Assembly: GCA_035403785.1 (NCBI GenBank)
Contig: DAONFW010000001.1
Span: 21,595 to 85,594, forward strand
DNA length: 64,000 nucleotides
Origin: Minisyncoccota bacterium
GTDB lineage: Bacteria; Patescibacteriota; Minisyncoccia; Phycocordibacterales; UBA9973
Reading direction: 5' to 3'
Shown: in pieces, positions 1 through 47,105 of the stretch
How positions within the stretch are numbered: position 1 is the first letter of the stretch
Layout of the letters: each line of letters opens with the position of its first letter
Notes under the pieces: model-generated
What the model was told of the DNA's origin: nothing
The model's database searches: none
The model's input: the letters and a program-made list of their open reading frames with translations, nothing else
Made by a program: the position numbers and the translations under genes

Positions 1-58
1 TGGGGGGAGCCGGCAAAAAATGGAAAGGAAAATTTTTGGTTTTGGTTCCGACGCTTCA
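1..58. repeat. Left copy (truncated by window edge) of long inverted repeat X1; reverse complement of 4792..4850
   Basis: Read directly from the sequence: 1..58 equals the reverse complement of about 4792..4850 (ggaaccaaaaccaaaaattttcctttccattttttgccggctcccccc). The partner copy continues to 4995, so this copy presumably extends beyond the left window edge. Confidence 0.8.
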
Positions 59-360
59 TTCCTCCAGAAAGGACTTGTATTTATATTTTAGCATTGTGGC
101 GATATTTTGTCCGTCCTTTCCTCCGTCATTCGCGTCGGTGCGAGGCGCTCCCGTATCCGCGTTTTGTGGTAGTTCTATCGTCCTCTCACACTTCACAATC
201 ACCTCACATAGGCCGTTCGCATTCGCTCACGATGCCTGCTCGGTGCTTGCTTCGTGTTCGCTCCGTGACTTCGTTTAAGCCTGTGGTAACTCTAAAAAGC
301 GGATTGTGCTGAGGCACAAGCAAGTTTATATGTGCTTGCCCCACCCGCCCACGTGCGCGC

Positions 361-390
361 ACAGAAAACCACTCGCTAACGCGAGTGGCT
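361..390 (-). terminator. GC hairpin (ccactcgc-taac-gcgagtgg) just downstream of the minus-strand ORF that ends at 400
   Basis: Perfect 8-bp stem with a 4-nt loop. An A-run precedes it on the plus strand, which is a T-run on the minus strand. Confidence 0.4.
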
Positions 391-399
391 CCCTTGTGA

Positions 400-1737
400 T
401 CATTTAATCTTTAAGAACAAATCGGTAATACCTTTGAGTAAATTTTCATCCGGCACTAAATCTTTAAGCTCTTTTGCAAATGACAAGAAACTTTCCGTTT
501 CTTTTTCATTACTAGCATTCAATAATTCTATTTTTTCTTTCTCTTTCTTTACCTTTTTCCAATCAATAGATTTCTCGTAAGGTTCAGTATAAAGTTTCTC
601 AATGGTTTTCCTTATGAAGGTCGTAGTCTCACCGTCTGACCCCTTTTCTTTAATTTTTTGAATTAGGAAATCTGCGTGGTTGCGCATGACTTCGGCTACA
701 GTTGCCTTGAATGAATATTTTTCCTCTAAATCCCGCTCAGTACCATATCGTCTAATTGCAAAAGTAATCAAAAAGAGTAGTGGCGAAGTAAGCGTTAAGC
801 GATAGAACAGAGATTCCCATTTAGGAATTTCACCTCCATTATGCAAAAGAATTTCCTTTACATCAAAAATAAAATAGAGAAGGATAGAAAGAGCAACAAT
901 ACCCAACGAGAAAATCGCTAACCAAATATAGCTATTCCTGCGTAGTAATTTAGCCCTATTTTGAAACGAATTAGCAAAACCCGTGTCTGTAATGAGGTCT
1001 GCTATTTTTTCAACCTCGGATCGTTTTTCTGTCGCGATATCAAGATTCTTTTGTATGTCATCTCGCAGTTGTTCTGATTTTTTCTTATTCCCTTCGATCT
1101 CAGAAAGGTGTTTCTGTGATTGATCACGAAAAGACTGAATTTCTGTAGCAACAGCAGTTGCTTTTTTCTGCAAATCTTGAACTTGCGCAAGAACTGCTCC
1201 CAAGCCGGTATTCTGGTCAGTAATTTTTGCATTAACCGCGACAAATTCATTGTAGGCATTTTGAATTTGTGTGATTTTTTCTTGAACTTGCCCCAGTAAT
1301 TCATTAATTTTCCCTAACTGTTGCGTCGCGGTTGTTTTGGCTGTTTCAATATCTGTTCGCAGGTTATTAGCTGTCAGAACAAGTGACTCTATTTCTCCCT
1401 CTCTACCCTCGATTTTTCCTTTTATGTTTTCAAATTTACGCAAACCTTCATCAATCTGAGTAATACTGGATTGTGCTTTTTCAAGATTGCTTTTTATTTC
1501 TGCAACAAAAGTTGCGGAATCATTCTTTGCGTTCTCAATAGTCCCAAGTCGCTCCCGGGCATCGTTTGAGATTTTTTCGATCTCATTCTGTTTTGGTACA
1601 AGGGTTGCTTGTGTAGCTTCAAATTTAATTTGAAGTGCTGAAATTTTCTCCAAAATATCTTTGGCTTTGTTGTATTGGCTCTTGATGTTCCTTAATTCTT
1701 CAGGACTCAAGTTAAAATTGTCGTTTTCGTCTGGCAT
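400..1737 (-). CDS. Hypothetical coiled-coil protein with two central TM helices (possible 2TM effector or abortive-infection-like protein); island 1 cargo
   Basis: 445-aa ORF. The N-terminal ~270 aa are E/K/Q-rich heptad-like sequence. Two hydrophobic helices follow (IWLAIFSLGIVALSILLYFIF; LTLTSPLLFLITFAI), then a ~120-aa charged tail. No recognisable enzyme motif. The gene is divergent from the LexA-like gene. Confidence 0.6.
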   Translation of the reverse strand: MPDENDNFNLSPEELRNIKSQYNKAKDILEKISALQIKFEATQATLVPKQNEIEKISNDARERLGTIENAKNDSATFVAEIKSNLEKAQSSITQIDEGLRKFENIKGKIEGREGEIESLVLTANNLRTDIETAKTTATQQLGKINELLGQVQEKITQIQNAYNEFVAVNAKITDQNTGLGAVLAQVQDLQKKATAVATEIQSFRDQSQKHLSEIEGNKKKSEQLRDDIQKNLDIATEKRSEVEKIADLITDTGFANSFQNRAKLLRRNSYIWLAIFSLGIVALSILLYFIFDVKEILLHNGGEIPKWESLFYRLTLTSPLLFLITFAIRRYGTERDLEEKYSFKATVAEVMRNHADFLIQKIKEKGSDGETTTFIRKTIEKLYTEPYEKSIDWKKVKKEKEKIELLNASNEKETESFLSFAKELKDLVPDENLLKGITDLFLKIK

Positions 1738-1749
1738 AAATTAATTGTG

Positions 1750-1792
1750 GATAACCGGGGACTTGTTTAGGTTATCTTTAGGTATTATAATC
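1750..1792 (+). promoter_or_regulatory. Palindromic operator candidate GATAACC-N13-GGTTATC overlapping a -10-like TATTATAAT in the divergent promoter region
   Basis: Seen in sequence: gataaccggggacttgtttaggttatc, then tattataat 6 bp before the ATG at 1798. It lies between the divergent 400..1737 and lexA-like genes. Confidence 0.45.
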
Positions 1793-1797
1793 TAACT

Positions 1798-2424
1798 ATG
1801 AAAAAGAAGTCAAGCGTTGGAATAGGTAAACCGACAAAGCGGGAAGCTGAAATCCTACAATTCGCACGAGAGTATCGTCAAGAAAATGGATTCTCCCCCT
1901 CACTGGTTGAGATTGCTAAACATTTTAAGCGTTCCGTGCCCACAATTCATCAACATGTCTATTCTTTGCGAAGCAAGAACCTTCTTTTGATAGATAAGGG
2001 CAAAAAGCGTTCAATCAATGCTTTACATAATCACAGGGTTTCGGAAGTAATGATACCTCTAATGGGAATTATTTCTGCCGGTGGTCCAATTGAGGCCATC
2101 CGCGATCCAAAACCAGTAGAAGTTCCGCGAAGTATGCTTTCCCCCGGACATGACTACTACGCACTAAAGGTTTCCGGGCTGAGCATGATTGAGGAAGGAA
2201 TATCAGATGGAGACGTTGTGATTGTAAGAGATCAACCAACAGTAGATGACGGAGAAAAAGCAGTCGCGTATATGCCAGATAGAAACGAAGTAACGCTCAA
2301 AAAAATATACAGAGAAAAAGGTCGGATAAAACTTGTTCCAGCAAATCAAACCATGAAGCCGTTTTATGAATCAAACGTGGTCATTCAAGGAAAGGTCGTA
2401 GGAGTATTAAGAAAAGAATTTTAA
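1798..2424 (+). CDS. lexA: LexA-like repressor (N-terminal winged HTH plus C-terminal S24 peptidase with an Ala-Gly self-cleavage site)
   Basis: HTH region LVEIAKHFKRSVPTIHQHV. Cleavage-site-like ISAGGP. Ser nucleophile in GLSM and Lys in TLKKI. Length of 208 aa is typical. Confidence 0.75.
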   Translation: MKKKSSVGIGKPTKREAEILQFAREYRQENGFSPSLVEIAKHFKRSVPTIHQHVYSLRSKNLLLIDKGKKRSINALHNHRVSEVMIPLMGIISAGGPIEAIRDPKPVEVPRSMLSPGHDYYALKVSGLSMIEEGISDGDVVIVRDQPTVDDGEKAVAYMPDRNEVTLKKIYREKGRIKLVPANQTMKPFYESNVVIQGKVVGVLRKEF

Positions 2425-2433
2425 AATAAACTT

Positions 2434-4008
2434 ATGTCATTAGTAACAATACACGAAGCATCAAAATGGGCGACGGACTATCTTGAAAAAGAGGTATCGC
2501 CAACAAATATTTCTTACCTTGTTCAATATGGTAAGGTTAAGAAACTTGGAGAAAATGGGTCAACCCTTGTTGATTTGAATGATTTGAAAAAGTATTACGA
2601 ATCATGGAAAGGTAAACGAGAGATTGATTGGAAAAAACAACTTGGTGATGATTTAAACTGGGCGTTGTCTTTTGATAATCTCAGGGAAAAAGATACGACG
2701 AAGCATGTTCATAGATTACATCCATACAAAGGAAAATATATTCCGCAACTTGTTGAATATTTTATTGATTCCCACATTGATGATTTTAAAAAAGAAGTTT
2801 ATTTTAAAACCGGTGATATAGTCCTCGATCCTTTTCTGGGTTCAGGAACAACAATTATTCAATCACTAGAAATGGGTATCCATTCCGTGGGTATTGATGT
2901 GTCTGAGTTTAATTGCATGATTGCGAGTTGCAAGGCAACAAACTATGATCACGACTATTTGCAGAAAGCAATTAAAAAAATGCTCTCCGCAATAGATACT
3001 TTTGAGCATGATAATAGAATCCAAGAATTTGAAACAGAGTTGTTGGCAGAATTGGCAAAGTTTAATAACAAACATTTTCCCGGCTCAGATTTCAAATATA
3101 AAATAAATCAGGGAAATTTTGATGAAAAAAAGTTTTCTTCAGAAAAAGAAAGGGAGTTTTTGCCTACATATCAGAAATTACTCAAAAAATATTCAATAAA
3201 ACTGAAACAAGACAAAACTGAGTCATTTTTAGATACTTGGTTTATGGATAATGTGAGAAAAGAAATTGATCATGTTTTTAACACTATAAAACAAGAGAAG
3301 GATACAAAAACAAAAAAGATTCTCGCTCTAATTTTGAGCCGAACAATTAGATCGTGTCGAGCTACAACACACAGCGATCTTGCTACCCTAAAAGAACCTC
3401 AACTAACAACATATTATTGCTATAAGCACAAAAAGATTTGCAAACCGTTGTTTTCTATAAAAACAATGCTTAATCGTTACGCTTACGATACTGTTTCAAG
3501 GATCAAGGAATTTGAAAGGTTGCGAAAACCAGTTCATTATTCTGCTATTGCTGGTGATTCAAGAGTTGTGGATATTTTTGAAAAAGTTGAAAAGCAAAAC
3601 CCAGAGTTCGCAAAAATTCTTAAAAAACAAAAAATTTCAGGTATTTTCTGCTCGCCTCCATATGTTGGACAGATTGATTATCACGAACAACACGCCTACG
3701 CCTATGACTTGTTAGGATTTAAGAGAAAAGATGATCTAGAAATTGGCCCACTTTACAAAGGACAAGGACAAGAGGCACGCAGATCATACGCACAAGGAAT
3801 AGCCGATGTGCTAAATAACTGTAAGAAATATCTAAAAGATGATTACGATATTTTCCTTGTGGCAAACGATAAATATAATCTTTATCCAGAAATTGCTGAA
3901 AAATCTGGAATGAAGATTGTTAATCAATTTAAAAGACCTGTTTTGAATCGAACAGAACGGGACAGGAATCCATATTCCGAAATAATTTTTCATTTTAAAT
4001 CAATATAA
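2434..4008 (+). CDS. Type II DNA methyltransferase, amino-MTase (N6-adenine or N4-cytosine), alpha-class motif order
   Basis: Motif I DPFLGSGTT at about aa 135. Motif IV SPPY (IFCSPPYVGQIDY) at about aa 410, with a long intervening target-recognition region. Confidence 0.75.
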   Translation: MSLVTIHEASKWATDYLEKEVSPTNISYLVQYGKVKKLGENGSTLVDLNDLKKYYESWKGKREIDWKKQLGDDLNWALSFDNLREKDTTKHVHRLHPYKGKYIPQLVEYFIDSHIDDFKKEVYFKTGDIVLDPFLGSGTTIIQSLEMGIHSVGIDVSEFNCMIASCKATNYDHDYLQKAIKKMLSAIDTFEHDNRIQEFETELLAELAKFNNKHFPGSDFKYKINQGNFDEKKFSSEKEREFLPTYQKLLKKYSIKLKQDKTESFLDTWFMDNVRKEIDHVFNTIKQEKDTKTKKILALILSRTIRSCRATTHSDLATLKEPQLTTYYCYKHKKICKPLFSIKTMLNRYAYDTVSRIKEFERLRKPVHYSAIAGDSRVVDIFEKVEKQNPEFAKILKKQKISGIFCSPPYVGQIDYHEQHAYAYDLLGFKRKDDLEIGPLYKGQGQEARRSYAQGIADVLNNCKKYLKDDYDIFLVANDKYNLYPEIAEKSGMKIVNQFKRPVLNRTERDRNPYSEIIFHFKSI

Positions 4009-4012
4009 TTTT

Positions 4013-4795
4013 ATGGCACTATCAAAAGAACAAGTTAAAAATGTCGAGGATGTACTAAAAGCAAGTCTCAGAAACAAATTCCAAAATTACAAACCGGAAC
4101 CGGCTTCGATGCCATTCCATACTCGTCTTTTGGGTAAGGATAGATTGGCACTTTATTCATTTATCCATTCTCTCAATACTAATTTTGGAACAAGTATTTT
4201 TGAACCGGTCGGCTTAGCTTTGGCGCAAAAGAATTTCAAAATGGCTACATGCCAAGCTACTGCCGGAGATCGTATAAGCACCGGCGCACAAGCAGAAATA
4301 CAAAAAATTATTGATGGACTAACGACGGCAACATCATCACCAAACAAAAAAGAGGAAATTGAACGAATAAGAAAAGTTTGTCAGTCTGGTGAGATGATAA
4401 AAGCAAAACCTACCAAAGTAGATTTAATGTTTGAATCAAAAGACGGCGGTTATTATTTATTTGATATAAAAACAGCAAAACCTAATGCTGGAGGATTTAA
4501 GGAATTTAAACGAACACTACTTGAATGGGTCGCTGTGACTTTGGCGAACAATCCAAAAGCCGATATAAACACATTTATCGCAATTCCATATAATCCTTAC
4601 GAACCAGAGCCTTACACACGATGGACAATGCGTGGAATGCTTGATTTGGATAATGAGCTTAAAGTAGCTGATGAATTTTGGGATTTTCTTGGTGGTAAAG
4701 GCACATACAAAGATTTACTAGATTGTTTTGAACGAGTTGGAATTGAACTTCGTGGCGAAATAGATGACTACTTTAAGCGCTTCAATAAAAAATAA
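4013..4795 (+). CDS. Putative cognate type II restriction endonuclease
   Basis: The start lies 4 bp after the MTase stop on the same strand. There is a possible D..D-x-K catalytic signature (KDGGYYLFDIK). No other homology is recognisable by eye. Confidence 0.45.
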   Translation: MALSKEQVKNVEDVLKASLRNKFQNYKPEPASMPFHTRLLGKDRLALYSFIHSLNTNFGTSIFEPVGLALAQKNFKMATCQATAGDRISTGAQAEIQKIIDGLTTATSSPNKKEEIERIRKVCQSGEMIKAKPTKVDLMFESKDGGYYLFDIKTAKPNAGGFKEFKRTLLEWVAVTLANNPKADINTFIAIPYNPYEPEPYTRWTMRGMLDLDNELKVADEFWDFLGGKGTYKDLLDCFERVGIELRGEIDDYFKRFNKK

Positions 4796-4995
4796 GCGTC
4801 GGAACCAAAACCAAAAATTTTCCTTTCCATTTTTTGCCGGCTCCCCCCACACCCCCCGCCGAAAGAGGAATTGTAAGGAAAATTTTGGTTTTGGGATCGC
4901 GACCGAAGGGAGCGTGCGAGGCGCAAGTATCATTCGTCAAAATCCTGCGGATTTTGTCCGAAATACATTCGAACTTCGTCCAATACACACCGCCA
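4792..4995. repeat. Inverted repeat X1, right copy, ending in the CCGCCA core at 4990..4995
   Basis: 4792..4850 matches the reverse complement of 1..58. The distal 50 bp (ggattttgtccgaaatacattcgaacttcgtccaatacacaccgcca) is conserved with the end of X2 at 36857..36906. Confidence 0.65.
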
Positions 4996-5109
4996 AAATT
5001 GGAAATCGGAATCGGAAGCCGAAATGGGGTCGGCGCGAAGCGCCGACACAAACGCATTCCCGCCAAAAATTCCCGAATCCAAAAGGTTTTTCCACGCTCC
5101 GCGTGGCTC
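4990..5109. repeat. Inverted repeat Y1, copy A (120 bp, GC-rich, with internal hairpins)
   Basis: Appears to be a perfect reverse-complement match to 6512..6631 when read by eye in chunks. It contains the hairpins gtcggcgc-gaa-gcgccgac and ccacgc-tcc-gcgtgg. Confidence 0.85.
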
Positions 5110-5131: not shown

Positions 5132-6730
5132 ATGAATAATCAAACCAAAAAGTTTTTCATATATACTCGCAAGTCTACGGATGACAAAGACAGACAAGTC
5201 CGCAGTATTGCAGACCAACTTTCTGAATTGAAAGAATTAGCAAGGAAAGAAGATTTAGATGTTGTTGATGTCTTTGTCGAAAAGCAGACCGCCAAAATAC
5301 CAGGTCGCCCAGTGTTTGGTGAGATGTTGGAGCGAATGGAGAAAGGCGAAGCCACTGGTATTTTGGCGTGGCATCCCGATAGACTTGCTCGCAACTCGAT
5401 AGACGGAGGAAAAGTCATCTACCTCGTTGACACCGGTGTCATTTCAGAAATGAAATTCCCAACTTTTTGGTTTGATCCGACACCGCAAGGCAAGTTTATG
5501 CTTTCAATCGCTTTTTCGCAGTCCAAGTATTATGTGGACAATTTGAGCGAAAATATTAAGCGTGGACATAGAAACAAAGTGAAAGAAGGAATATGGCCTC
5601 AAATGTCGCCGCTAGGATATATAAACGAGGGCGGGAAAATTGTCGTTGATGAAAATATCGCACCTTTAATCAAGAAAACATTTGAGGCATATTCGTCTGG
5701 GTCTTTCACTTTGCGACAACTTCGCGACAAATTTAATGAACTTGGATTGAAGCGAAAAAGCGGAAAGGAACTTGCGGTGTCGAATTATCAAAAACTTTTG
5801 AAAAACCCAATTTACACAGGTTTGATGTTGTATAACGGCGAGATACACGAAGGTAAGCACGAACCGATTATTACAAAGAAACTTTTTGATTCCGTTCAAG
5901 AAGTGATGATGAGAAAATCTAAACCGAAGTCGCGAGGATTGAAACCATTTTTGTACAGAGGATTTTTCCGTTGCGGAGAATGTAGTTGCTTCATTACCAC
6001 CGAAACACAGAAGGGTCATAATTATTTGCGATGTACCAAACGGAAAAATCCTTGTTCACAAAAATATACTCGTGAGGAAACCATCACTTCTGAAATTCAA
6101 AAGGAAATCAAAAAAGTTTCTTTGCCAGACGATTGGGCTTCTTGGATGTTAGTGGAAAATAGAAAAGATATATTGAGTGAAGCCCAATTGTCTACGCTTT
6201 TTGCAGACAACACAAAAGCCGATATTTCTCTTTTGGATTCTAAAATTGAGAAGCTGATGAACGCATATTTAGAGAACGCACTTTCGCTAGACGAGTATCG
6301 AGATATGAAAAACAAACTTGTGAACGAAAAACAGCTTCTCAAAGAGAAATTATCGGCTTTTGAGAAAAAAGCGAATAATCGGTTCGAACTTACCGAAAAG
6401 TTTTTGAAATACAATGTGGAATTGGCAAACGAGTGTACAAATGAAGAAAAACTTCATTTGTACAAAAAAGTCGGTTCGAACTTTCAAATTAAGGATCGAA
6501 CCGTACTTTTTGAGCCACGCGGAGCGTGGAAAAACCTTTTGGATTCGGGAATTTTTGGCGGGAATGCGTTTGTGTCGGCGCTTCGCGCCGACCCCATTTC
6601 GGCTTCCGATTCCGATTTCCAATTTTGGCGGAGGCGGAGGGATTCGAACCCTCGATGCCCTTTCAGACATACAGACTTTCCAGGTCTGCGCACTAGACCG
6701 CTATGCGACGCCTCCAAAATTTCTTATTAA
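5132..6730 (+). CDS. Large serine recombinase (resolvase/invertase catalytic domain, recombinase domain and zinc ribbon)
   Basis: The ATG at 5132 aligns with the paralog start MDNINLQTKKIFLYARKSTDE. Catalytic Ser is in YTRKSTDD. The Cys cluster FRCGECSCFITT...LRCTKRKNPC is present. Homology to the paralog ends near aa 465 (GSNFQIKDRTVLFEP). The last ~70 codons are encoded by repeat Y1 copy B and antisense tRNA-Ser, so the functional end is probably earlier than the ORF stop. Confidence 0.85.
   Translation: MNNQTKKFFIYTRKSTDDKDRQVRSIADQLSELKELARKEDLDVVDVFVEKQTAKIPGRPVFGEMLERMEKGEATGILAWHPDRLARNSIDGGKVIYLVDTGVISEMKFPTFWFDPTPQGKFMLSIAFSQSKYYVDNLSENIKRGHRNKVKEGIWPQMSPLGYINEGGKIVVDENIAPLIKKTFEAYSSGSFTLRQLRDKFNELGLKRKSGKELAVSNYQKLLKNPIYTGLMLYNGEIHEGKHEPIITKKLFDSVQEVMMRKSKPKSRGLKPFLYRGFFRCGECSCFITTETQKGHNYLRCTKRKNPCSQKYTREETITSEIQKEIKKVSLPDDWASWMLVENRKDILSEAQLSTLFADNTKADISLLDSKIEKLMNAYLENALSLDEYRDMKNKLVNEKQLLKEKLSAFEKKANNRFELTEKFLKYNVELANECTNEEKLHLYKKVGSNFQIKDRTVLFEPRGAWKNLLDSGIFGGNAFVSALRADPISASDSDFQFWRRRRDSNPRCPFRHTDFPGLRTRPLCDASKISY
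6512..6631. repeat. Inverted repeat Y1, copy B, overlapping the recombinase 3' end and abutting the tRNA-Ser 3' end
   Basis: Reverse complement of 4990..5109. Its last 6 nt (tggcgg) are the terminal CCGCCA of the tRNA. Confidence 0.85.
6626..6715 (-). tRNA. tRNA-Ser (anticodon GGA), class II with a long variable arm
   Basis: Reverse complement reads GGAGGCG-TC-GCAT...; anticodon stem-loop CAGAC-CTGGAAA-GTCTG; T arm GAGGGTTCGAATCCCTC; acceptor CGCCTCC-G-CCA. Length 90 nt. Confidence 0.85.
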
Positions 6731-22352: not shown

Positions 22353-24539
22353 TTATTTCAAACTATTTATCACTGTATTTGTCTTAGGACCAATAATACC
22401 ATCACCTACTAACTTGTTAGCTAATTGGAACTTAATGACTGCTTTTTTAGTTAAAGTACCAAAGTAGTTTGTCTCATGTCCTGGTGAACCTGCTCCTGTA
22501 GTAGCTACTTGATAACCATGAGTGTTTAAGAACTTTTGGAGTTCTTTTACGTCATTGTTTATCATAGAGTATTTTAGGAGTTTGGTGAAGGTGAAGGAAG
22601 TTGCTGAAGTATTACTAAATTGTGATTGTAATTGTGCAGCTTCTGTTGTTTTACCCATTGATACTAAGTTGGCCACTTGAGCTCCTAGAGATGAGCCGGA
22701 AGAAGTGTGAGACCTTGGAGTTAAAATTGTAGTAAAATTCCAAAATGTTTTATTTGAAATCGCCCCAATAGGATTACCAGACAAATCAGTAACAGCACCC
22801 TCTTCGGTTAAAACATAATATCCTGTATTTTCATCTAATACATTAGATGGATTAACAGTGACAACATTACCTACTATGGTTACACTAGGATCACCACCCG
22901 TTACTGTTTCAACTAATGAATCATCAGATGTTTTATAAATTCTAAAAGTTTTACCATTTCCAATTAAAATATCTTCATTAAAAGTTATAGCTAAATTTGT
23001 ATCTACTGCTACATCAATAGCATTATCTAATGGATTAAATAAAGAAACAGTAGGAGGAATAACATCTTCTAAAACAAGTTTAGAAATAAAACTATCCCAA
23101 TCACCAAAAGAAGTTAAAGTAGTTGTTCCTACTCCTGGATCAAAACCACCTGTACCAGAAAAAGATCCTGCAACCCAAACATTATCTCCCGAAGAATCAA
23201 CAGCAACACTTGCATCATAACTCGAACCTGAACCCATTTGTTTTGCCCAAACAAAATTACCATCTGAATCAAGTTTTAAAACGAATTTACTATTACCAGC
23301 TGAAGCCAAATTATAGGTTCCTGCTCCAGGATCAAAATCAACTGTACTATTAAAAAATCCAGCGGTATAAGTATTACCACTTGAATCAATTGCAATACCA
23401 AAAGATTCATCTTCGGCTCCTGTACCTCCTATTTGTTTTACCCATACAAAATTTCCATCTGAATCAAGTTTTAAAATAAAAATATCCTCCGTTCCAGAAG
23501 TAGCTATTAATTTATTTTCTGCTACTCCAGGATCAAAATCAACCGTTCCAGTAAAATATCCGGTAAGATACAAATTATTCCCAGTAAAATCAAGAACTGA
23601 ATCAAACGGGGTGCTTGCACCCACACCAGAACCTACTATTTGTTTTGCCCATACAAAATTACTAGAAGAATCTAACTTCACAACAAAACTATCTGTTCCT
23701 ACAGCTGTAAGAGGAAAGATTCCTGCCCCAGGGTCAAAATCATCAGTTCCATCAAAATAACCAGAAAAATAAACATTGCCATTAGAATCAACTGCAGCAG
23801 AAGGACTAGTCCCCCATCTATATGTTCCCATTTGTTTTGCCCATACAAAATTACCATCTGAATCCAGTTTTAAAACATACGAAGCACTATTGTTCGGTGA
23901 GACAATATCAACAACAGAAGCTCCTGGATCAAAATCAACAGTTCCAGAAAAAGAACCCGAAATATAAATATTATTTAATGAATCAAGAGTTAAATTTTTA
24001 CTATCCGCAGAATCAGTACCAGTATTATGCCCTCCTACTTGTTTTGCCCAAACAAAATTTCCACTTGAATTTAATTTAACAATAAAAACATCTGTTCCAC
24101 CAACAGCCGTAAGGGGAAAAGTTCCTGCCCCAGGATCAAAATCAACAGTTCCAGAAAAATAACCAGTTATATAAACATTTTTAGAAGCATCCACTTTCAA
24201 AGAACGACCAAAAGCCTGATTTCCAGCTGTTCCACCCATTTGTTTTGCCCATACAAAATTACCATCTGAATCCATTTTTAAAACAAAAGCATCATAAAGA
24301 GCAGATGTTAAAGAAACATTTCCTATCCCCGGATCTAAATCAGCTGTCCCAGAAAAAAAACCAGTGGTATAAACATTACCGCTTGAATCAATCGCATTAG
24401 AATAAGAAATATCTCTTCCAGCTCCTCCAATTTGCCCGACCCAATTCAAAAGGACATTATCAGCTTTTGCTAACTGAGGAAACATCACACCAAATACTAA
24501 GAATAAAACAAAAACACTTAAAACTAAATATTTTTTCAT
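22353..24539 (-). CDS. Secreted SBBP (beta-propeller) repeat protein with Ig-like region and C-terminal peptidoglycan-binding domain
   Basis: Signal peptide. At least 8 repeats of DSxGNxYxTGxFSGTxDFDPG...FVxKLDSDGNFVWAKQ. The C-terminus LQKFLNTHGY...GxxTxxAVxxFQ matches the PG_binding_1 pattern. Confidence 0.75.
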   Translation of the reverse strand: MKKYLVLSVFVLFLVFGVMFPQLAKADNVLLNWVGQIGGAGRDISYSNAIDSSGNVYTTGFFSGTADLDPGIGNVSLTSALYDAFVLKMDSDGNFVWAKQMGGTAGNQAFGRSLKVDASKNVYITGYFSGTVDFDPGAGTFPLTAVGGTDVFIVKLNSSGNFVWAKQVGGHNTGTDSADSKNLTLDSLNNIYISGSFSGTVDFDPGASVVDIVSPNNSASYVLKLDSDGNFVWAKQMGTYRWGTSPSAAVDSNGNVYFSGYFDGTDDFDPGAGIFPLTAVGTDSFVVKLDSSSNFVWAKQIVGSGVGASTPFDSVLDFTGNNLYLTGYFTGTVDFDPGVAENKLIATSGTEDIFILKLDSDGNFVWVKQIGGTGAEDESFGIAIDSSGNTYTAGFFNSTVDFDPGAGTYNLASAGNSKFVLKLDSDGNFVWAKQMGSGSSYDASVAVDSSGDNVWVAGSFSGTGGFDPGVGTTTLTSFGDWDSFISKLVLEDVIPPTVSLFNPLDNAIDVAVDTNLAITFNEDILIGNGKTFRIYKTSDDSLVETVTGGDPSVTIVGNVVTVNPSNVLDENTGYYVLTEEGAVTDLSGNPIGAISNKTFWNFTTILTPRSHTSSGSSLGAQVANLVSMGKTTEAAQLQSQFSNTSATSFTFTKLLKYSMINNDVKELQKFLNTHGYQVATTGAGSPGHETNYFGTLTKKAVIKFQLANKLVGDGIIGPKTNTVINSLK

Positions 24540-34176: not shown

Positions 34177-34267
34177 ATTTAAAATTTAAAATATCTAATA
34201 GTTAGATAAACTAAATATTATCATAAAGTTATTTTTTGTGCAAATAGAATAATTATTGAATTTAAAA

Positions 34268-34462
34268 ATCTGGCGGTGTTTTTTGGACGAAGTTCGAACG
34301 TTTTTTGACGAAAATCCTGAAAACTAATTTGGACTCGGCGGGGCAAACTATTTTTCTGGGGGAATGGAATTGCCCCGCCTCGGCTTTCTTCCCGCCCGCA
34401 GGAGGGGTCTGGGGAGGAATGCGGGCGGGTTTTTGAACCTTTCCTTTTTCGCTTCCGAATTT
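34268..34462. repeat. Inverted repeat X2, left copy (about 195 bp, GC-rich), starting with a tggcgg core
   Basis: Perfect reverse complement of 36712..36906 read by eye. The sequence at 34463..34480 differs from its partner, but each version is itself an 18-bp palindrome. Confidence 0.85.
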
Positions 34463-34493
34463 CGTGCCAGTTGAAAACTGGCGCGCCACCTAT

Positions 34494-35477
34494 TTAACTA
34501 TTTTTTAAATCACTCATTATTTTTTTTGCCAAGTGATGAGCAAAATTTACTGCAACAGCATTTCCAATCATTTTATAACCGTCAGCAATATCACGATATT
34601 TGAAAATAAAATCATCGGGAAATGTTTGTATTCTTGCACACTCACGAACAGACAAACGGCGGTATAATTGTTCTTTTCCGGGAACAAAAATTCTTTTATT
34701 TTGTTCAATAAATTTCATTTTTGGTGCTTGTGGGTGAATTGGTGCGTGGCGACCACCAGCTTGAATTGTGAAAGAAGGCTCGTCCCAAGAACGGACACGA
34801 TTTCGCGACATATAAATCGTTGAGAAACCGCCATTCATATATTCATGGTTTGGAATTTTCAACTCGTCGCCGTTTGTCTTGTTTTTATCTTTAGCTGGTT
34901 TTGCTAAACGCAAATCAAAAATAGCGTCTTTCAAAACAGGTTTATATTTTTGTGGTTCTGGAAATTCAAATTTCTTTTTTAATTTTTTATGATAACCAAC
35001 AATAATAACGCGAAGCCTATCCTCTGGAACATCATAATCATTTGCGTTTAGAAGTTTGCAAGAAATTACATATCCGGCATTTTCAAATTCCTTGATTATA
35101 TTTGAAAATGCCTCTTTGTGTTTTGGGTGTAAAATCCCCGATACATTTTCTGCAAGAAAAAATTTTGGCTGTTTTTCTTTCAATAAACGAATGTAGTCAT
35201 AAAATAATTGACCTCGCTTGTCGTTTATTCCACGCCCAGCACCAGCCTCACTCCAACTTTGGCAAGGAGGTCCGCCAATAATTCCGTCAACATCGGGGAT
35301 TTCAGACGCTGGAACATCAACAATACTTCTCTTGTCTAATTTTGTTTTTGGAAAATTATACTCAAATGTTTCCCAAATTGTCGGGTCGTATTCATTCGCC
35401 CAAACGACATGAAAACCAGCTCTTTCAAAGCCTAAATCTAACCCACCCGCACCTGTAAATAAAGAAGCTAATTTCAT
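34494..35477 (-). CDS. dcm: DNA (cytosine-5)-methyltransferase
   Basis: Motif I LFTGAGGLDLGF. Motif IV GGPPCQSWS. Motif VI ENV. Motif X GNAVAVN. Confidence 0.9.
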   Translation of the reverse strand: MKLASLFTGAGGLDLGFERAGFHVVWANEYDPTIWETFEYNFPKTKLDKRSIVDVPASEIPDVDGIIGGPPCQSWSEAGAGRGINDKRGQLFYDYIRLLKEKQPKFFLAENVSGILHPKHKEAFSNIIKEFENAGYVISCKLLNANDYDVPEDRLRVIIVGYHKKLKKKFEFPEPQKYKPVLKDAIFDLRLAKPAKDKNKTNGDELKIPNHEYMNGGFSTIYMSRNRVRSWDEPSFTIQAGGRHAPIHPQAPKMKFIEQNKRIFVPGKEQLYRRLSVRECARIQTFPDDFIFKYRDIADGYKMIGNAVAVNFAHHLAKKIMSDLKNS

Positions 35478-35478
35478 A

Positions 35479-36327
35479 TTATTTTCTAAAACTCAATAAT
35501 TTCGCCTCAAGCAATTTTGCTGGATTATTTGGCGATTTTATTTTTATATCTTTAATTAAAAAGTTATCACTAACTAAACTTTCAAGATGTTTTCTGTCTT
35601 TTTCTGGAAAAGACAAATATTTTTCTTTCAGCAAAATTGCATTAACAAAAAATTCAGAATTTTGCTCTGCCGGAACAACATAATCAAAAACTTTTATAGG
35701 ATTTTCAATTCCCCACATTCCACGAATACGCAAATATGTTATTCCAAGAGGATCAACGCGATTTACTCTGCCGAGTTCGTTTGTTTCCGAAAATTCAACA
35801 TCTTGTAATTCATTAACACCTTTTGAAATTTTATCTCTTATTCTTTCGTAAACTTCTTTATTTGCGGAATAACAATTACCATAAACAAGCCACAAGGCTT
35901 TTAGCTTGTCATCTTTTGAAACTCCAACAACATAAACTAAATCTTTTTCCCGCCAATCCTCACAATTTTTGCAAGCAGTGGTTATCATCGGACTATCAGA
36001 AAATAGTTTGTCTTTAGGATACGAACTATTAAGTGCAATTCCCGAACGCAAACTTTCAATTTTCTTAACTTCTATCGCATCACCTTGCTTGATAATAATG
36101 TCTGGCGGATTATTTTGATTTCCAATATAAGAAAAATATTTGCTGTAAATTTCATTTTTCTTTTCAAGATTATTTTCATTTAGGGAATTGCAAAATAAGT
36201 CTTTGATATAAAATTCTAAAGCGTCGCCCATACTGTTTGCTCGGTTGGCAGCACGATAATGAGAAACCAAATTTGTAATTGGATTTTTGACTAAATTTGA
36301 TATTGCGATAAGTAAATTTGTTTCCAT
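35479..36327 (-). CDS. Type II restriction endonuclease (PD-(D/E)xK fold), cognate of the m5C MTase
   Basis: PPDIIIKQGDAIEVKK fits PD-x10-ExK. It is 1 bp upstream of dcm on the same strand. Confidence 0.55.
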   Translation of the reverse strand: METNLLIAISNLVKNPITNLVSHYRAANRANSMGDALEFYIKDLFCNSLNENNLEKKNEIYSKYFSYIGNQNNPPDIIIKQGDAIEVKKIESLRSGIALNSSYPKDKLFSDSPMITTACKNCEDWREKDLVYVVGVSKDDKLKALWLVYGNCYSANKEVYERIRDKISKGVNELQDVEFSETNELGRVNRVDPLGITYLRIRGMWGIENPIKVFDYVVPAEQNSEFFVNAILLKEKYLSFPEKDRKHLESLVSDNFLIKDIKIKSPNNPAKLLEAKLLSFRK

Positions 36328-36331
36328 AGTT

Positions 36332-36526
36332 TTATTTTATTAAATCCTCAATCGGCACATTAAGTGCCTTCGCGATTTTTTTAATTGTATCAATAGTTGG
36401 ATTTTGTTGTTTGCCTGCCTCGATATTGATTATCGTATTATTGGAAACATCAGCAAGACGGGCTAGTTTTTCTTGCGACAAACCCATTTTTTCTCTTATT
36501 CGTTTGATTTTGCTTGACTCTACCAT
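36332..36526 (-). CDS. Controller (C) protein, XRE-family HTH
   Basis: 64-aa HTH (LSQEKLARLADVSNNTIINIEAGK). It lies immediately upstream of the REase gene. Confidence 0.7.
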   Translation of the reverse strand: MVESSKIKRIREKMGLSQEKLARLADVSNNTIINIEAGKQQNPTIDTIKKIAKALNVPIEDLIK

Positions 36527-36556
36527 ATTAAAATAGTAATATTAAATTGTGGTATA

Positions 36557-36600
36557 ATAATTATATGCTTCAACAAAATAACCACAATATAATATTACCA
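36557..36600 (-). promoter_or_regulatory. Candidate C-box operator palindrome (TTGTGGT ... ACCACAA) upstream of the C-protein gene
   Basis: Seen in sequence: attgtggtataataattatatgcttcaacaaaataaccacaat. Confidence 0.4.
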
Positions 36601-36711
36601 AAATATTTCGACTTCGTAAAGAAAAAAGGGAGTTCCTTAGCGTTGCCCGCGAATGGGTTGGGTGGGTCAAGGGCAACATCTCTTTTGGTGGCGCATTTTG
36701 CTTTGCAAAAT

Positions 36712-36906
36712 ACGAAATTCGGAAGCGAAAAAGGAAAGGTTCAAAAACCCGCCCGCATTCCTCCCCAGACCCCTCCTGCGGGCGGGAAGAAAGCCGAGGC
36801 GGGGCAATTCCATTCCCCCAGAAAAATAGTTTGCCCCGCCGAGTCCAAATTAGTTTTCAGGATTTTCGTCAAAAAACGTTCGAACTTCGTCCAAAAAACA
36901 CCGCCA
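36712..36906. repeat. Inverted repeat X2, right copy, ending in the CCGCCA core (36901..36906)
   Basis: Reverse complement of 34268..34462. Confidence 0.85.
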
Positions 36907-37034
36907 AGTTTTACATTCAGCGAAATTGAAAGATGTTGCCTCGGCGCAAAGCGCCTCGGCATGGTATTTTTCCGCAATTTTGAAGGCATTTTTGAAATCC
37001 AAAACCAAAGTGCGGTCGGCAATGCGGAAGTTCG
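36901..37034. repeat. Inverted repeat Y2, copy A (about 133 bp)
   Basis: Perfect reverse complement of 38518..38650 read by eye. It contains the ggcgc-aaa-gcgcc hairpin. Confidence 0.85.
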
Positions 37035-37148: not shown

Positions 37149-38702
37149 ATGGACAACATAAATTTACAAACCAAAAAGATTTTTCTCTATGCCCGTAAAT
37201 CCACGGACGAACCCGAAAGGCAGGTTTTGAGTATTGAGGCGCAAATGTTTGAATTGCGGGAATTTGCGAAAAAAGAAGGACTAAATATCGTCCGTGAATT
37301 TGTGGAAAGCAAAACCGCCAAAGAGCCGGGGCGTGAGATTTTTAACGAAATGATCACAAGCATAGAGAAAAATGAAGCAGAGGGAATTTTAGCGTGGCAC
37401 CCCGACCGCCTCGCTCGAAATAGCATAGACGGCGGACGAATAATCTATTTCGTAGATACTGGCAAAATTACCACGCTAAAATTTCCAACTTTTTGGTTTG
37501 ATCCGACACCGCAGGGAAAATTTATGTTGAGTATCGCTTTTGGGCAATCAAAATATTATGTGGATAATCTTTCGGAAAATATAAAGAGGGGTATTCGCCA
37601 GAAATTGCGAAATGGAATATGGCCCGCTTGGGCGCCACTTGGGTATGTGAACGACAAGAACGCCCGCTGTATTGCCGTGGACAAGGAAAAGGCAAAGTAT
37701 ATCAAGCGGGCTTTTGAAATGTACGCGACTGGCGAATACCCCCTCGCTCAAATCCGAAAGATTATCAATTCCTTGGGCTTGGTTGGCAAGAAAGGCAAAA
37801 TGCTTTCCGTCTCAAATTATCAGTATATGCTGAAAAATAAAATCTATTACGGAATGATTGAATATAACGGCGAATTGTATGACGGAAAGCACGAACCGAT
37901 TATCACAAAGAGACTTTTTGATTTATGCCAAGAAGTGATGATGAATAAGTCAAAACCGAAAACACCAAAACTCAAGCCATACATTTTTAGAGGATTTTTC
38001 CGTTGTGGGGAGTGCGGTTGTTTCATTACCACCGAAACGCAAAAAGGTCATAACTATTTGCGATGTACGAAACGGAAAAATCCTTGTTCGCAAAGGTATG
38101 TAAGAGAGGACGCCATCACTTCTCAAATTAAAGAGGAAATCAAAAAAGTTTCTTTGTCTTCCGCTTGGGCAAACGCTTCAATCAATTATTTTGAAAATGA
38201 AAAAATGAAACTTGCCCAAGCGGAAAGCTCTTTCGCCCAAGAAGCGAGAAATGAGCTTGTAGAGATAGAAACAAAACTTGATCGTTTGCTTGATTTACAA
38301 CTGGACGGCAGTTTGTCGCAAGCAGAATATACCGCTAAAAAGCACAAGCTCATTCTCGCCAAAAAGGATTTGGAAGAAAAAATCACTGCTTTTGGGCGAA
38401 AGAGCAATAATCGGTTCGAACTTACCATTGCCTTTCTAAAAGACGCCAACCAAGCCGAAAAATACGCTCAACAAGAAAATCCCGAAAGGATTCGGGATTT
38501 TCTCAAAAAGATTGGTTCGAACTTCCGCATTGCCGACCGCACTTTGGTTTTGGATTTCAAAAATGCCTTCAAAATTGCGGAAAAATACCATGCCGAGGCG
38601 CTTTGCGCCGAGGCAACATCTTTCAATTTCGCTGAATGTAAAACTTGGCGGAGACGGCGGGATTCGAACCCGCGATGGGTTTTGAAGCCCATGCCTCTTT
38701 AG
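37149..38702 (+). CDS. Large serine recombinase (paralog of 5132..6730)
   Basis: YARKSTDEPERQ catalytic motif. Zinc ribbon FRCGECGCFITT...LRCTKRKNPCSQ. The C-terminal tail is encoded by repeat Y2 copy B and then antisense tRNA-Ser, giving WRRRRDSNPR as in the paralog. Confidence 0.85.
   Translation: MDNINLQTKKIFLYARKSTDEPERQVLSIEAQMFELREFAKKEGLNIVREFVESKTAKEPGREIFNEMITSIEKNEAEGILAWHPDRLARNSIDGGRIIYFVDTGKITTLKFPTFWFDPTPQGKFMLSIAFGQSKYYVDNLSENIKRGIRQKLRNGIWPAWAPLGYVNDKNARCIAVDKEKAKYIKRAFEMYATGEYPLAQIRKIINSLGLVGKKGKMLSVSNYQYMLKNKIYYGMIEYNGELYDGKHEPIITKRLFDLCQEVMMNKSKPKTPKLKPYIFRGFFRCGECGCFITTETQKGHNYLRCTKRKNPCSQRYVREDAITSQIKEEIKKVSLSSAWANASINYFENEKMKLAQAESSFAQEARNELVEIETKLDRLLDLQLDGSLSQAEYTAKKHKLILAKKDLEEKITAFGRKSNNRFELTIAFLKDANQAEKYAQQENPERIRDFLKKIGSNFRIADRTLVLDFKNAFKIAEKYHAEALCAEATSFNFAECKTWRRRRDSNPRWVLKPMPL
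38518..38650. repeat. Inverted repeat Y2, copy B, abutting the tRNA-Ser 3' end
   Basis: Reverse complement of 36901..37034. Confidence 0.85.
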
Positions 38703-38737
38703 CAAAGAGGTACGTTAGACCACTCTGACACGTCTCC
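38646..38737 (-). tRNA. tRNA-Ser (anticodon GCU), class II
   Basis: Reverse complement reads GGAGACG...; anticodon loop CCTCT-TTGCTAA-AGAGG; long variable arm; GGTTCGAATCC T-loop; CCA is encoded. Confidence 0.85.
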
Positions 38738-38809: not shown

Positions 38810-38898
38810 GGAGGCGTGGATGAGTGGTTTAAATCAACGGTTTACTAAACCGTCGTACCCTAACCGGTACCGTGAGTTCGAATCTCACCGCCTCCGCA
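38810..38898 (+). tRNA. Class II (Ser-type) tRNA with apparent anticodon ACU (unusual A34); possible tRNA-Ser variant or pseudo-tRNA
   Basis: Acceptor GGAGGCG/CGCCTCC. D-stem GAT/ATC with GG in the loop. Anticodon arm ACGGT-TTACTAA-ACCGT. Variable arm GTACC-CTAACC-GGTAC. T arm GTGAG-TTCGAAT-CTCAC. The 3' CCA is not fully encoded (GCAG). Confidence 0.6.
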
Positions 38899-46680: not shown

Positions 46681-46712
46681 GATAATTTTATGAAAGTTAT
46701 TATATCAAATTC

Positions 46713-47105
46713 TGTGGAGATGGGGGAAATCGAATCCCCGTGCAGAAGGTTACTGAAATGAAATCTACATACTTAGTTTGTTTTTTTGTTTAAACCTAAA
46801 AACTAATAAGCAAACAAAATGTTTTTAGATCGATCCTCTTTGTTTCGGAAAAGACCCGAGGCTTGTCTTCCCTATCCCGAAAATATTATGCCCCAAACTT
46901 ATATATCGGAAGTCTATAAGCGAGACACCAGCCCTCTTAAGCGAAAGCTGGAGCAAAAGCGAAGTCCTTCATACCGAAGTATGGAGAAACTGAATCTTTT
47001 ACTTTAGAAGCTAATTTTGCAATTAGTTTTTTGAATAAGTTAACGAGATTATTCAGCTCGGTATGCATCAAGACAAACAGCCAACTGTCTATGCCTTGCA
47101 TCCCC
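46713..47105 (-). ncRNA. ssrA: tmRNA (ssrA) adjacent to smpB
   Basis: The reverse complement begins GGGGATGCAAGGCAT. It ends with a T-arm-like GGGGATTCGATTTCCCC and acceptor CATCTCCA with a G3-U70 pair. An internal reading frame ...MKDFAFAPAFA-TAA resembles Mollicutes-type proteolysis tags. The region is otherwise noncoding. Confidence 0.75.

Follow-up and report, generated by a model that had tools for sequence, protein, structure and literature searches.

What is a sequence that resembles the 3′ end of a transfer RNA (tRNA) doing at the repeat junctions of two genomic islands in a Minisyncoccota bacterium? The stretch analyzed here, 64,000 nucleotides of contig DAONFW010000001.1 (assembly GCA_035403785.1, positions 21,595 to 85,594; hereafter the window), holds two such islands, each made up of cargo genes, a gene for a large serine recombinase (LSR; int1 in island 1, int2 in island 2), inverted repeats that we call the X and Y arms, and a tRNA-Ser gene. 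Both islands share the motif TTCGAACTTCGTCCAA[T/A]A[C/A]ACACCGCCA. A first-pass annotation of this DNA proposed that the motif may be a degenerate copy of the tRNA attachment sequence. We arrive at a different reading, namely that it is very probably the outer end of X and the P half-site of the attP site of an integrative element whose LSR targets tRNA-Ser genes.

The motif occurs in three exact copies in the window, at 4968-4995 and 36879-36906 on the forward strand and at 34271-34298 on the reverse strand, with 0.00 expected from 100 shuffles. The same three sites are returned when three mismatches are allowed (expectation still 0.00), and also by the skeleton TTCGAA-N16-CCGCCA (0.20 expected). 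GC content is ~34% across the window and higher in the two islands. The sequence originally flagged at 4949-4995 and its counterpart at 36860-36906 are both present, with 27 of 30 positions identical between the 30-mers and 83% identity over the 48-nt block (4949-4996 versus 36860-36907). The inverted copy reported for the left X2 arm exists as well, although at 34271-34298 rather than at 34268-34297. The resemblance to the T loop and 3′ end of the tRNA also stands as far as the two boxes, TTCGAA and CCGCCA, are concerned, but the motif has 16 nt between them where the tRNA has 11 nt.

A census of the motif covered the window and 80 related loci (1.06 Mb; related loci and metagenome contigs are designated by L numbers below), the best 80 among 589 recombinases found in a scan of one genome per species. 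Chance alone would give 0.35 copies in the relatives, which contain 74. Immediately upstream of int there are 44, a further 22 occupy the inverted partner position, and 8 are found elsewhere; at least 4 of these 8 (L010, L036, L044, and L050) have locations of the att type or within arrays. Conservation of the motif extends to recombinases as little as 54% identical, and in the sequence searched the motif is linked exclusively to LSR genes. Its suspected tie to an attachment system is thereby borne out, with 66 of the 74 copies at two att positions rather than scattered in the manner of a repetitive extragenic palindromic (REP) element.

The recombinases themselves are large members of the serine family. 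The N-terminal catalytic domain of int1 and int2 (PF00239) is recognized with E values of 2e-19 and 7e-20, R16-K17-S18 is invariant in sets of 10 and 20 homologues, and the proteins also contain the PF07508 (Recombinase) and PF13408 (zinc ribbon) domains, with long antiparallel helices modeled at residues 338-441. The best matches of an AlphaFold model of the integrase are the DNA complexes of the SPbeta, LI, Bxb1, and PhiC31 integrases (E 1e-15 to 1e-9). By record title, the relatives come mostly from Patescibacteria, also called Candidate Phyla Radiation (CPR), or from Elusimicrobia, with some metagenome-assembled genomes (MAGs) labeled Gammaproteobacteria, Bdellovibrionales, or Bacteroidota. 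The sequence downstream of int is long enough for assessment in 72 loci, and in 64 of them int runs convergently toward the 3′ end of a gene for tRNA or transfer-messenger RNA (tmRNA); the targets are mostly tRNA-Ser with any anticodon, but also tRNA-Gln, tRNA-Glu, and tRNA-Asp, and tmRNA in one locus. The full double inverted-repeat layout, X′-cargo-X/Y-int-Y′-tRNA, is present in 21 related loci from different MAGs, with arms 91-100% identical and 1.3-8.2 kb of cargo that is different each time. Where sampled, the cargo of relatives is mostly defense related (type III restriction-modification, GmrSD, OLD-like ATPase, and others). Many contigs end 100-450 nt upstream of int, as expected from long repeats. 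A phage origin was considered and rejected, since only 2 reasonable relatives were found among 2.9 million viral contigs.

Read along the tRNA strand, each island has the order T.c.Y - int - Y′.c′.X′ - cargo - X.c.F, where T is the tRNA, c the core, and F the chromosomal flank. Judged from this arrangement, T.c.Y is attL and X.c.F is attR, the products of integrating X.c.Y (attP) into T.c.F (attB), and the site between int and cargo is by its sequence an intact attP (X.core.Y) in inverted orientation. Because each island holds an attL, an attR, and an internal attP, one motif is found in the visible part of island 1 and two in island 2; the remainder of the left X1 arm and its attR junction precede the start of the window, and the whole arm with the X1.CCGC.flank junction is seen in L098. 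Both tRNA-Ser genes end in CCGCCA, the encoded CCA included (6626-6631 and 38646-38651 in forward-strand coordinates), and TGGCGG at 34271-34276 adjoins the chromosomal flank of island 2. The X and Y repeats were initially described as overlapping exactly on CCGCCA, which is the case in island 2 (36901-36906), whereas the overlap in island 1 lies outside what the window shows.

The limits of the exchange can be drawn more tightly than this hexamer. In three-site alignments of ~20 loci, the internal site matches the far junction in its left arm and the tRNA junction in its right arm. It is identical to the tRNA junction from CCGC onward (CAGC in tRNA-Gln elements), and its identity to the far junction ends 0-2 nt past CCGC. 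These limits place the exchange within the first four bases of the hexamer, CCGC, corresponding to tRNA positions 71-74; the proposal of CCGCCA as the crossover core was therefore right as to place and two bases too generous. Several individual loci agree. In L007, L051, and L059, the far-junction flank departs from the element-supplied end straight after CCGC, and we read the flank side as the native tRNA end, as an attR should show. The same island 1 in L098 has X1.CCGC.aaaattattg at its far junction, compared with X1.CCGC.caaaattgg at the internal site; therefore, the shared core of island 1 is CCGC. A different element sits on the flank of island 2 in L097 with the same join point, CCGCCA|gatt, and in the tandem array of L073 the hybrid junction Y2′.GCGG.X1′ falls exactly at the core.

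The altered spacing between the two boxes is itself informative. Each of the 28 distinct X arms carries the invariant TTCG(A/G)A at a distance of 16 nt from the core, against 11 nt in tRNAs, and relatives that target tRNA-Asp and tRNA-Gln have the same 5-nt difference; the sequence between box and core is unrelated between X and tRNA. In the work of Rutherford et al. on LI integrase, the zinc-ribbon motif was located at bp 16-24 of the half-site in attP and at bp 11-19 in attB, a 5-bp shift that underlies the discrimination between the two sites (PMC3783163). The motif fits the P arm of an attP that would share a recognition box with the attB arm supplied by the tRNA, and by analogy with LI integrase we infer that the zinc-ribbon domain reads the box GTTCGAA. 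All 28 arms use CGA for the arginine within the box, whereas CGA accounts for only 15% of arginine codons in the int genes; to judge from this bias, the box is under a DNA-level constraint besides coding.

The motif is also coding sequence. On the opposite strand and in the int frame, it supplies the last 16-17 codons of the recombinase when int and X′ are joined, as in the attP configuration. In the window, as in the majority of homologues, int reads TGG CGG (W R) over the core and then continues into the antisense tRNA (..WRRxRDSNPR..), so that in the integrated form of the window the native tail is swapped for the antisense-tRNA residues W-R-R-R-R-D-S-N-P-R. About 20 of 120 database homologues carry instead the tail W-R-C-F-L-D-E-V-R-T-F-F-[DE]-[EQ]-N-P. 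This is the reverse complement of the motif in translation, and int is therefore joined to X′ in those homologues. For the first, second, and third codon positions of the 28 distinct arms, mean information is 1.34, 1.52, and 0.87 bits. The ratio of nonsynonymous to synonymous polymorphism (pN/pS) is 0.42 with zero stops in the int frame, whereas the two remaining frames contain stops and give 0.94 and 1.39. In the more distant relative L023, the hand-translated tail LRVKVRNFFAQHPE keeps the peptide pattern while the DNA differs. An AlphaFold model predicts the native tail to be a helix (residues 498-513) that follows the last β-hairpin past the coiled coil, with a predicted local distance difference test (pLDDT) score of 77-92 across the last four 10-residue blocks. 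The conservation of this tail implies that the state in which int is joined to X′ is biologically used.

The architecture of the sites, the limits of the core, the 5-bp offset, the family-wide conservation, and the coding signature can be read directly from the compared loci; several points nevertheless weigh against the identification of the motif as a P half-site. A search for an empty attB (tRNA.core.flank) of this species, made through the flanking MarR and DHQ-synthase-like proteins, returned only occupied sites or rearranged flanks (L095 and L096), and as no unoccupied attB was found, the attL and attR assignments rest on comparative logic. The empty attB of island 2 would be expected to read tRNA.CCGCCA.gatttttaaattc; an unoccupied tRNA-Ser(GCT) beside an occupied neighbor is present in L076, from a different organism. 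The right half-sites have no clear dyad symmetry to the left ones (symmetric fraction 0.21-0.31 at every candidate center), and as the dyad search is uninformative in this respect, CC, CG, and GC are all possible as the central dinucleotide. Half-site positions 1-10, near the crossover, are unlike between X and tRNA, and the chromosomal flanks (B′ arms) are wholly unconserved. Both the missing symmetry and the unconserved flanks are atypical of well-studied LSR sites, and from them it appears that target specificity resides largely in the tRNA half. In principle, coding alone could explain why the box is conserved; the invariant CGA opposes this, but the 28 arms are interrelated. Finally, the model of the integrase with the tRNA-derived tail is poor throughout (mean pLDDT 47.5, with the C-terminal 64 residues below 50), compared with a mean of 76 for the native-tail model, at equally deep alignments for both versions; this contrast may be an alignment effect and does not permit a tail-specific reading.

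A number of related loci suggest that the internal inverted attP is recombinationally active. In L076, L081, and L088, the tRNA lies upstream with int pointing away from it, followed by Y′.c′.X′ and cargo, which is the expected product of integration via the other attP copy or of inversion of the int cassette; the assembly of these three loci is unambiguous because their arms have diverged. In L066 (53-2044), int lies between two inverted tRNA-Ser genes, GCT and GGA, and in L003 (9669-11587), a tRNA-Ser is found on either side of int, the expected product of recombination between the internal attP and a second attB. These layouts suggest chromosomal rearrangement between tRNA genes via the internal attP. 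For int between inverted tRNAs, a single-stranded dumbbell intermediate with hairpin-capped ends was also considered and rejected, as the two tRNAs of L066 differ (GCT versus GGA). Tandem arrays of two elements are present in L073 (1116-11438), where the hybrid attP is exact at the 4-nt core, and in L044 (2081-11515), where a 30-nt decayed tRNA fragment (5470-5500) lies between the elements; in L089 and L090, int is flanked by attP-type sites on both sides. Accretion in these arrays and doubly flanked int genes falls exactly at the core and hints that attP may also take an occupied site as its partner.

Cargo, too, is found in both orientations (L094, L098, and L082-L087). The cargo of island 2 (34466-36711) is reversed in L094 relative to the window and L091, that of island 1 (57-4793) is reversed in L098 relative to the window, and the cargo of another element occurs both ways around. 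Inversions across identical arms longer than the assembler k-mer may represent arbitrary assembly paths; L098, L081, L088, and L073 are free of this artefact because their arms differ (in L098 by one base). The arm on the endonuclease side has a run of C5 in L098, L099, and L100 and of C6 in the window, and since this marker stays with the position and not with the cargo end, it is slight evidence for homologous exchange within the arm as opposed to site-specific exchange at the core. Int points the same way in 64 loci out of 72 and across three samples of the species, so that its inversion, if any, would be rare or short-lived.

These findings can be accommodated in a scheme in which the LSR would exchange strands inside CCGC of the tRNA-Ser 3′ end. 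The mobile form would be a circle in which two inverted attP regions of ~320 bp part the int segment from the cargo segment. Integration via the attP copy that overlaps the 3′ end of int would give the predominant, window-like form and replace the C-terminal helix of the integrase with tRNA-derived residues, while integration via the other copy, or later inversion, would give the minority form; the tail swap would presumably alter integrase activity. The arm identities (mostly 97-100%) are best explained by gene conversion between the inverted repeats or by recent arrival.

A more far-reaching role for the retained inverted attP, which we put forward tentatively and regard as rather unlikely, would be that of a functional switch that toggles the integrase C terminus, and possibly directionality, without a separate directionality factor. 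With the attP core inside int, integration would swap the native helix and lock the predominant form, and the internal site would store the native 3′ end. Recombination of this site with attL would then flip the int cassette, a reaction that the integrase itself could catalyze, the family appearing to accept tRNA.core.anything as a target. The flip would restore the native protein and put int downstream of the tRNA promoter. A free attP would also explain the capture of a second tRNA (L066), tandem accretion, and the exchange or inversion of defense cassettes between X arms.

Other explanations of the motif need to be set against its identification as an attP half-site. That it is a degenerate, decaying tRNA 3′ half left behind or carried by integration, similar to the fragments displaced by tyrosine integrases, would fit the TTCGAA and CCGCCA that it has in common with the tRNA-Ser end and its location, which is that of a displaced fragment in a classical tRNA island. 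A remnant would drift, however; the motif instead keeps its sequence family-wide, shows codon periodicity in the integrase frame, and has a pN/pS of 0.42, a signature of purifying selection. It can be aligned with the tRNA only by means of a 5-nt shift, the 16 nt between its boxes (CTTCGTCCAAAAAACA) are unlike T stem or acceptor strand, and a true decayed remnant, such as that in L044, has a different look. The degenerate-copy proposal thus does not hold up, and we consider it highly improbable. It is also improbable, if less so, that the motif is kept solely as code for the integrase C-terminal helix, its likeness to the T loop and the 5-bp offset being coincidental. The strong coding signature, the database proteins that bear the tail, and the confidently predicted helix are what this explanation would lead one to expect, but not the preference for CGA over its 15% usage, the invariance of TTCG-A including a third codon position, or the 16-nt distance to the core that is fixed in all subfamilies, those targeting tRNA-Gln and tRNA-Asp included. 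The offset moreover equals the published zinc-ribbon shift (PMC3783163), and an attP arm must in any case fall within ~25 bp of the crossover.

Compatible with the attP assignment is the idea that X and Y are primarily inversion sites, like hix, gix, or FRT in the 2-micron repeats, and the motif an invertase site; inversion would then be the function for which the internal site is selected. The flipped int forms (L076, L081, and L088), the reversal elsewhere of the cargo of both window islands (L094 and L098) and of another element both ways, and arrays whose hybrid attP at the exact core points to use of an occupied site all speak for it. Canonical LSRs, however, recombine attP with attB only (PMC3783163), RecA alone can invert perfect repeats of 120-430 bp, the C5/C6 marker hints at a crossover inside the arm and not at the core, and some apparent inversions could be assembler paths through repeats. 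With int orientation as constant as it is across loci and samples, we hold inversion as the primary role to be a minority prospect, doubtful on present evidence. That the motif is a generic repeat of the REP kind or of the kind of miniature inverted-repeat transposable elements (MITEs), or that the three-site structure is an assembly artefact, has next to no credibility: the GC-rich hairpins of the X arms are superficially REP-like, but all three window copies lie at junctions, the two att positions beside an LSR gene account for 66 of the 74 copies in the related loci searched, and the same layout is found in more than 20 independent assemblies. The identification of the motif as the P half-site of attP accordingly remains the one that we prefer.

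The features of both islands are collected in Table 1.

Table 1. Features of the two islands, in window coordinates.
Feature	Position	Strand	Basis or remark
X1′ inner end, left X1 arm, island 1	1..56	-	100% inverted repeat with 4794-4849
Island 1 cargo	57..4793	.	Pfam; L098 has the same cargo, other end joined to chromosomal flank
Cargo open reading frame (ORF), 445 aa, unassigned, island 1	400-1737	-	Pfam scan
LexA/S24-like regulator, island 1	1798-2424	+	Pfam
N4/N6 DNA methylase, island 1	2434-4008	+	Pfam
TdeIII/HinfI-type restriction endonuclease, island 1	4013-4795	+	Pfam
Right X1 arm, island 1; outer 28-48 nt (4949-4995) = flagged motif, probable attP P arm	4794..4995	+	
Core CCGCCA of internal inverted attP, island 1; exchange limited to CCGC 4990-4993	4990..4995	+	
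Y1 arm, P′ side of attP; inverted copy of int1 3′ end	4990..5109	+	120 nt, 100% identical inverted repeat with 6512-6631
int1, LSR, 532 aa	5132..6730	+	Pfam Resolvase + Recombinase + Zn_ribbon_recom; ORF crosses Y1′ and core into antisense tRNA (...WRRRRDSNPR...)
Y1′ arm and core; with tRNA, attL of island 1	6512..6631	-	
tRNA-Ser(GGA); last 4-6 nt = crossover core	6626..6715	-	ARAGORN, Rfam
Left X2′ arm, attR of island 2; motif 34271-34298	34271..34465	-	195 nt, 100% identical inverted repeat with 36712-36906
Island 2 cargo	34466..36711	-	Pfam
C5 DNA methylase, island 2	34494-35477	-	Pfam
NgoPII-type endonuclease, island 2	35479-36327	-	Pfam
Small helix-turn-helix controller ORF, island 2	about 36332-36526	-	Gene call from identical contig L091
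Right X2 arm, island 2; motif 36879-36906	36712..36906	+	
Core of internal inverted attP, island 2	36901..36906	+	X/Y repeat overlap; three-site alignment
Y2 arm	36901..37034	+	134 nt, 100% inverted repeat with 38518-38651
int2, LSR, 517 aa, 56% identical to int1	37149..38702	+	ORF crosses Y2′ and core into antisense tRNA
Y2′ arm and core; with tRNA, attL of island 2	38518..38651	-	
tRNA-Ser(GCT), integration target of island 2	38646..38737	-	ARAGORN, Rfam

By domain content, the cargoes of both islands are type II restriction-modification systems. The X arms that enclose them contain GC-rich hairpins with the conserved C-rich loops ATTCCTCCCCAGACCCCTCCT and ..TCCTTTCCCCAGAAAAT.. (36745-36845, 34330-34430, 4800-4900, and arms of L001-L079). 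In the second hairpin, 10 of 11 stem pairs show compensatory changes in a comparison of 7 elements, and the first occurs in either orientation, depending on the element. These hairpins may act as terminators or insulators, be bound by a protein, or be RNAs. No Rfam family matches the X or Y arms at the gathering threshold, nor at E up to 1, and a promoter and terminator scan of island 2 gave nothing exceeding shuffles. The inner boundary of X (36712 and 34465) is identical (ACGAAATTCGG...) in five elements, island 2 and those of L001, L006, L014, and L018, with quite different cargo; this suggests that cargo is swapped precisely between the arms, as if these were homology or cassette borders. 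The inner end of Y2 (38514-38525) lies within a third GGTTCGAACTTC, which encodes the invariant integrase GSNF; the boundary is elsewhere in island 1, and the position may be a coincidence.

Several further observations concern potential targets and flanks. A second tRNA-Ser gene with the unusual anticodon ACT (ARAGORN) is located at 38810-38897 on the forward strand, divergent from tRNA-Ser(GCT) and 73 nt away from it. The same pair is found in L043, L044, and L076, and in L076 the ACT gene is the occupied target. A tmRNA gene at 46712-47105 on the reverse strand appears unoccupied, and the relative L024 sits at a tmRNA 3′ end. In the contigs L095 and L096, from two samples with the identical MarR protein, the flank upstream of the MarR gene (equivalent to window positions 34177-34300) leads into quite different DNA, one contig having a gene for an R.Pab1-type endonuclease there and the other a gene with a SET domain. 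Both contigs lack an X arm and a tRNA, and the break in L095 adjoins the core position. Unrelated to the motif, a 728-aa ORF at 22353-24539 on the reverse strand comprises about 7 repeats of ~200 nt (families D1-D5).

The recombinases belong to a large, hitherto undescribed clade of serine integrases directed at tRNA and tmRNA genes, for which attP, attL, and attR can now be assigned, together with the 4 nt that bound the exchange. As one attB arm is a near-universal T-arm and acceptor end and the other seemingly unconstrained, these enzymes are candidates for genome engineering at natural conserved sites. Their architecture offers a testable route to self-control of a serine integrase without a directionality factor, and it shows small-genome, largely uncultured bacteria gaining and shuffling restriction-modification and defense cassettes. 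The motif itself would be one short sequence under dual constraint, as a putative protein-binding DNA site and as coding sequence. In literature searches we found no LSR element with an internal inverted attP and no such integrative element from CPR bacteria, which is not proof of absence; the combination of a retained inverted attP, a crossover in the int ORF, and repeats bounding int and defense cassettes appears to be undescribed.

Among known systems, the recombinases are like those of PhiC31, Bxb1, A118/LI, SPbeta (SprA), Tn4451 (TnpX), and Tn5397 (TndX), three-domain enzymes with a coiled-coil insertion in the zinc ribbon, and their sites are similar to those of known LSRs in the short core identity, the hybrid attL and attR, and the box placed 5 bp further out in attP. 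Unlike known LSR elements, the islands use a tRNA or tmRNA 3′ end as target, have an attB whose right half is unconserved and an attP core inside the int ORF, and keep an intact inverted attP, with no phage genes and no obvious directionality factor; the recombinase also has hardly any relatives in viral contigs. Until recently it was assumed that tRNA genes are not used by serine integrases; a survey from 2020 found the use of tRNA or tmRNA genes, termed previously unreported, in only 4.9% of serine-integrase elements (PMC7192596).

In their target, the islands are closer to the P4-like tRNA islands of tyrosine integrases, which likewise integrate between T loop and 3′ end, resupply the tRNA end from the element, carry small defense or accessory cargo, and accrete in tandem at the same tRNA. 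The enzyme class and chemistry of P4-like islands are different, and genuine tRNA sequence of 15-50 nt is directly repeated at their boundaries, whereas here the shared stretch is only 4-6 nt long and the tRNA-like arm is displaced by 5 nt. A crossover within an ORF of the element that changes the protein is also known from the "suicidal" archaeal integrases of the SSV type (PMC7253208) and from integration-dependent immunity of mycobacteriophages (PMC3694055). Those systems use tyrosine recombinases, and the gene is split or truncated; in the present islands, a serine integrase has only its terminal 16-17 residues replaced, by ones encoded in the antisense tRNA, and a spare native 3′ end is kept in inverted orientation.

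The arrangement of two unique segments between long inverted repeats that contain a recombinase site, with the segments occurring in either orientation, recalls the 2-micron FLP/FRT system, plastid inverted repeats, and Hin, Gin, and Cin. Unlike the FLP and Hin systems, the enzyme is an LSR and integration is chromosomal; no Fis or enhancer logic is evident, no enhancer search having been made. The islands also do not conform to Hin/Gin-type invertases in that the enzyme is an LSR of 517-532 aa and the repeats are 120-430 bp long, against 26-bp sites in those invertases. Inversions between tRNA genes in Thermococcales are driven by a tyrosine integrase, in archaea and without an internal attP (PMC5495485), and yet they offer a likeness to the arrangement in L066, as there, too, the integrase of an element joins different tRNA genes.

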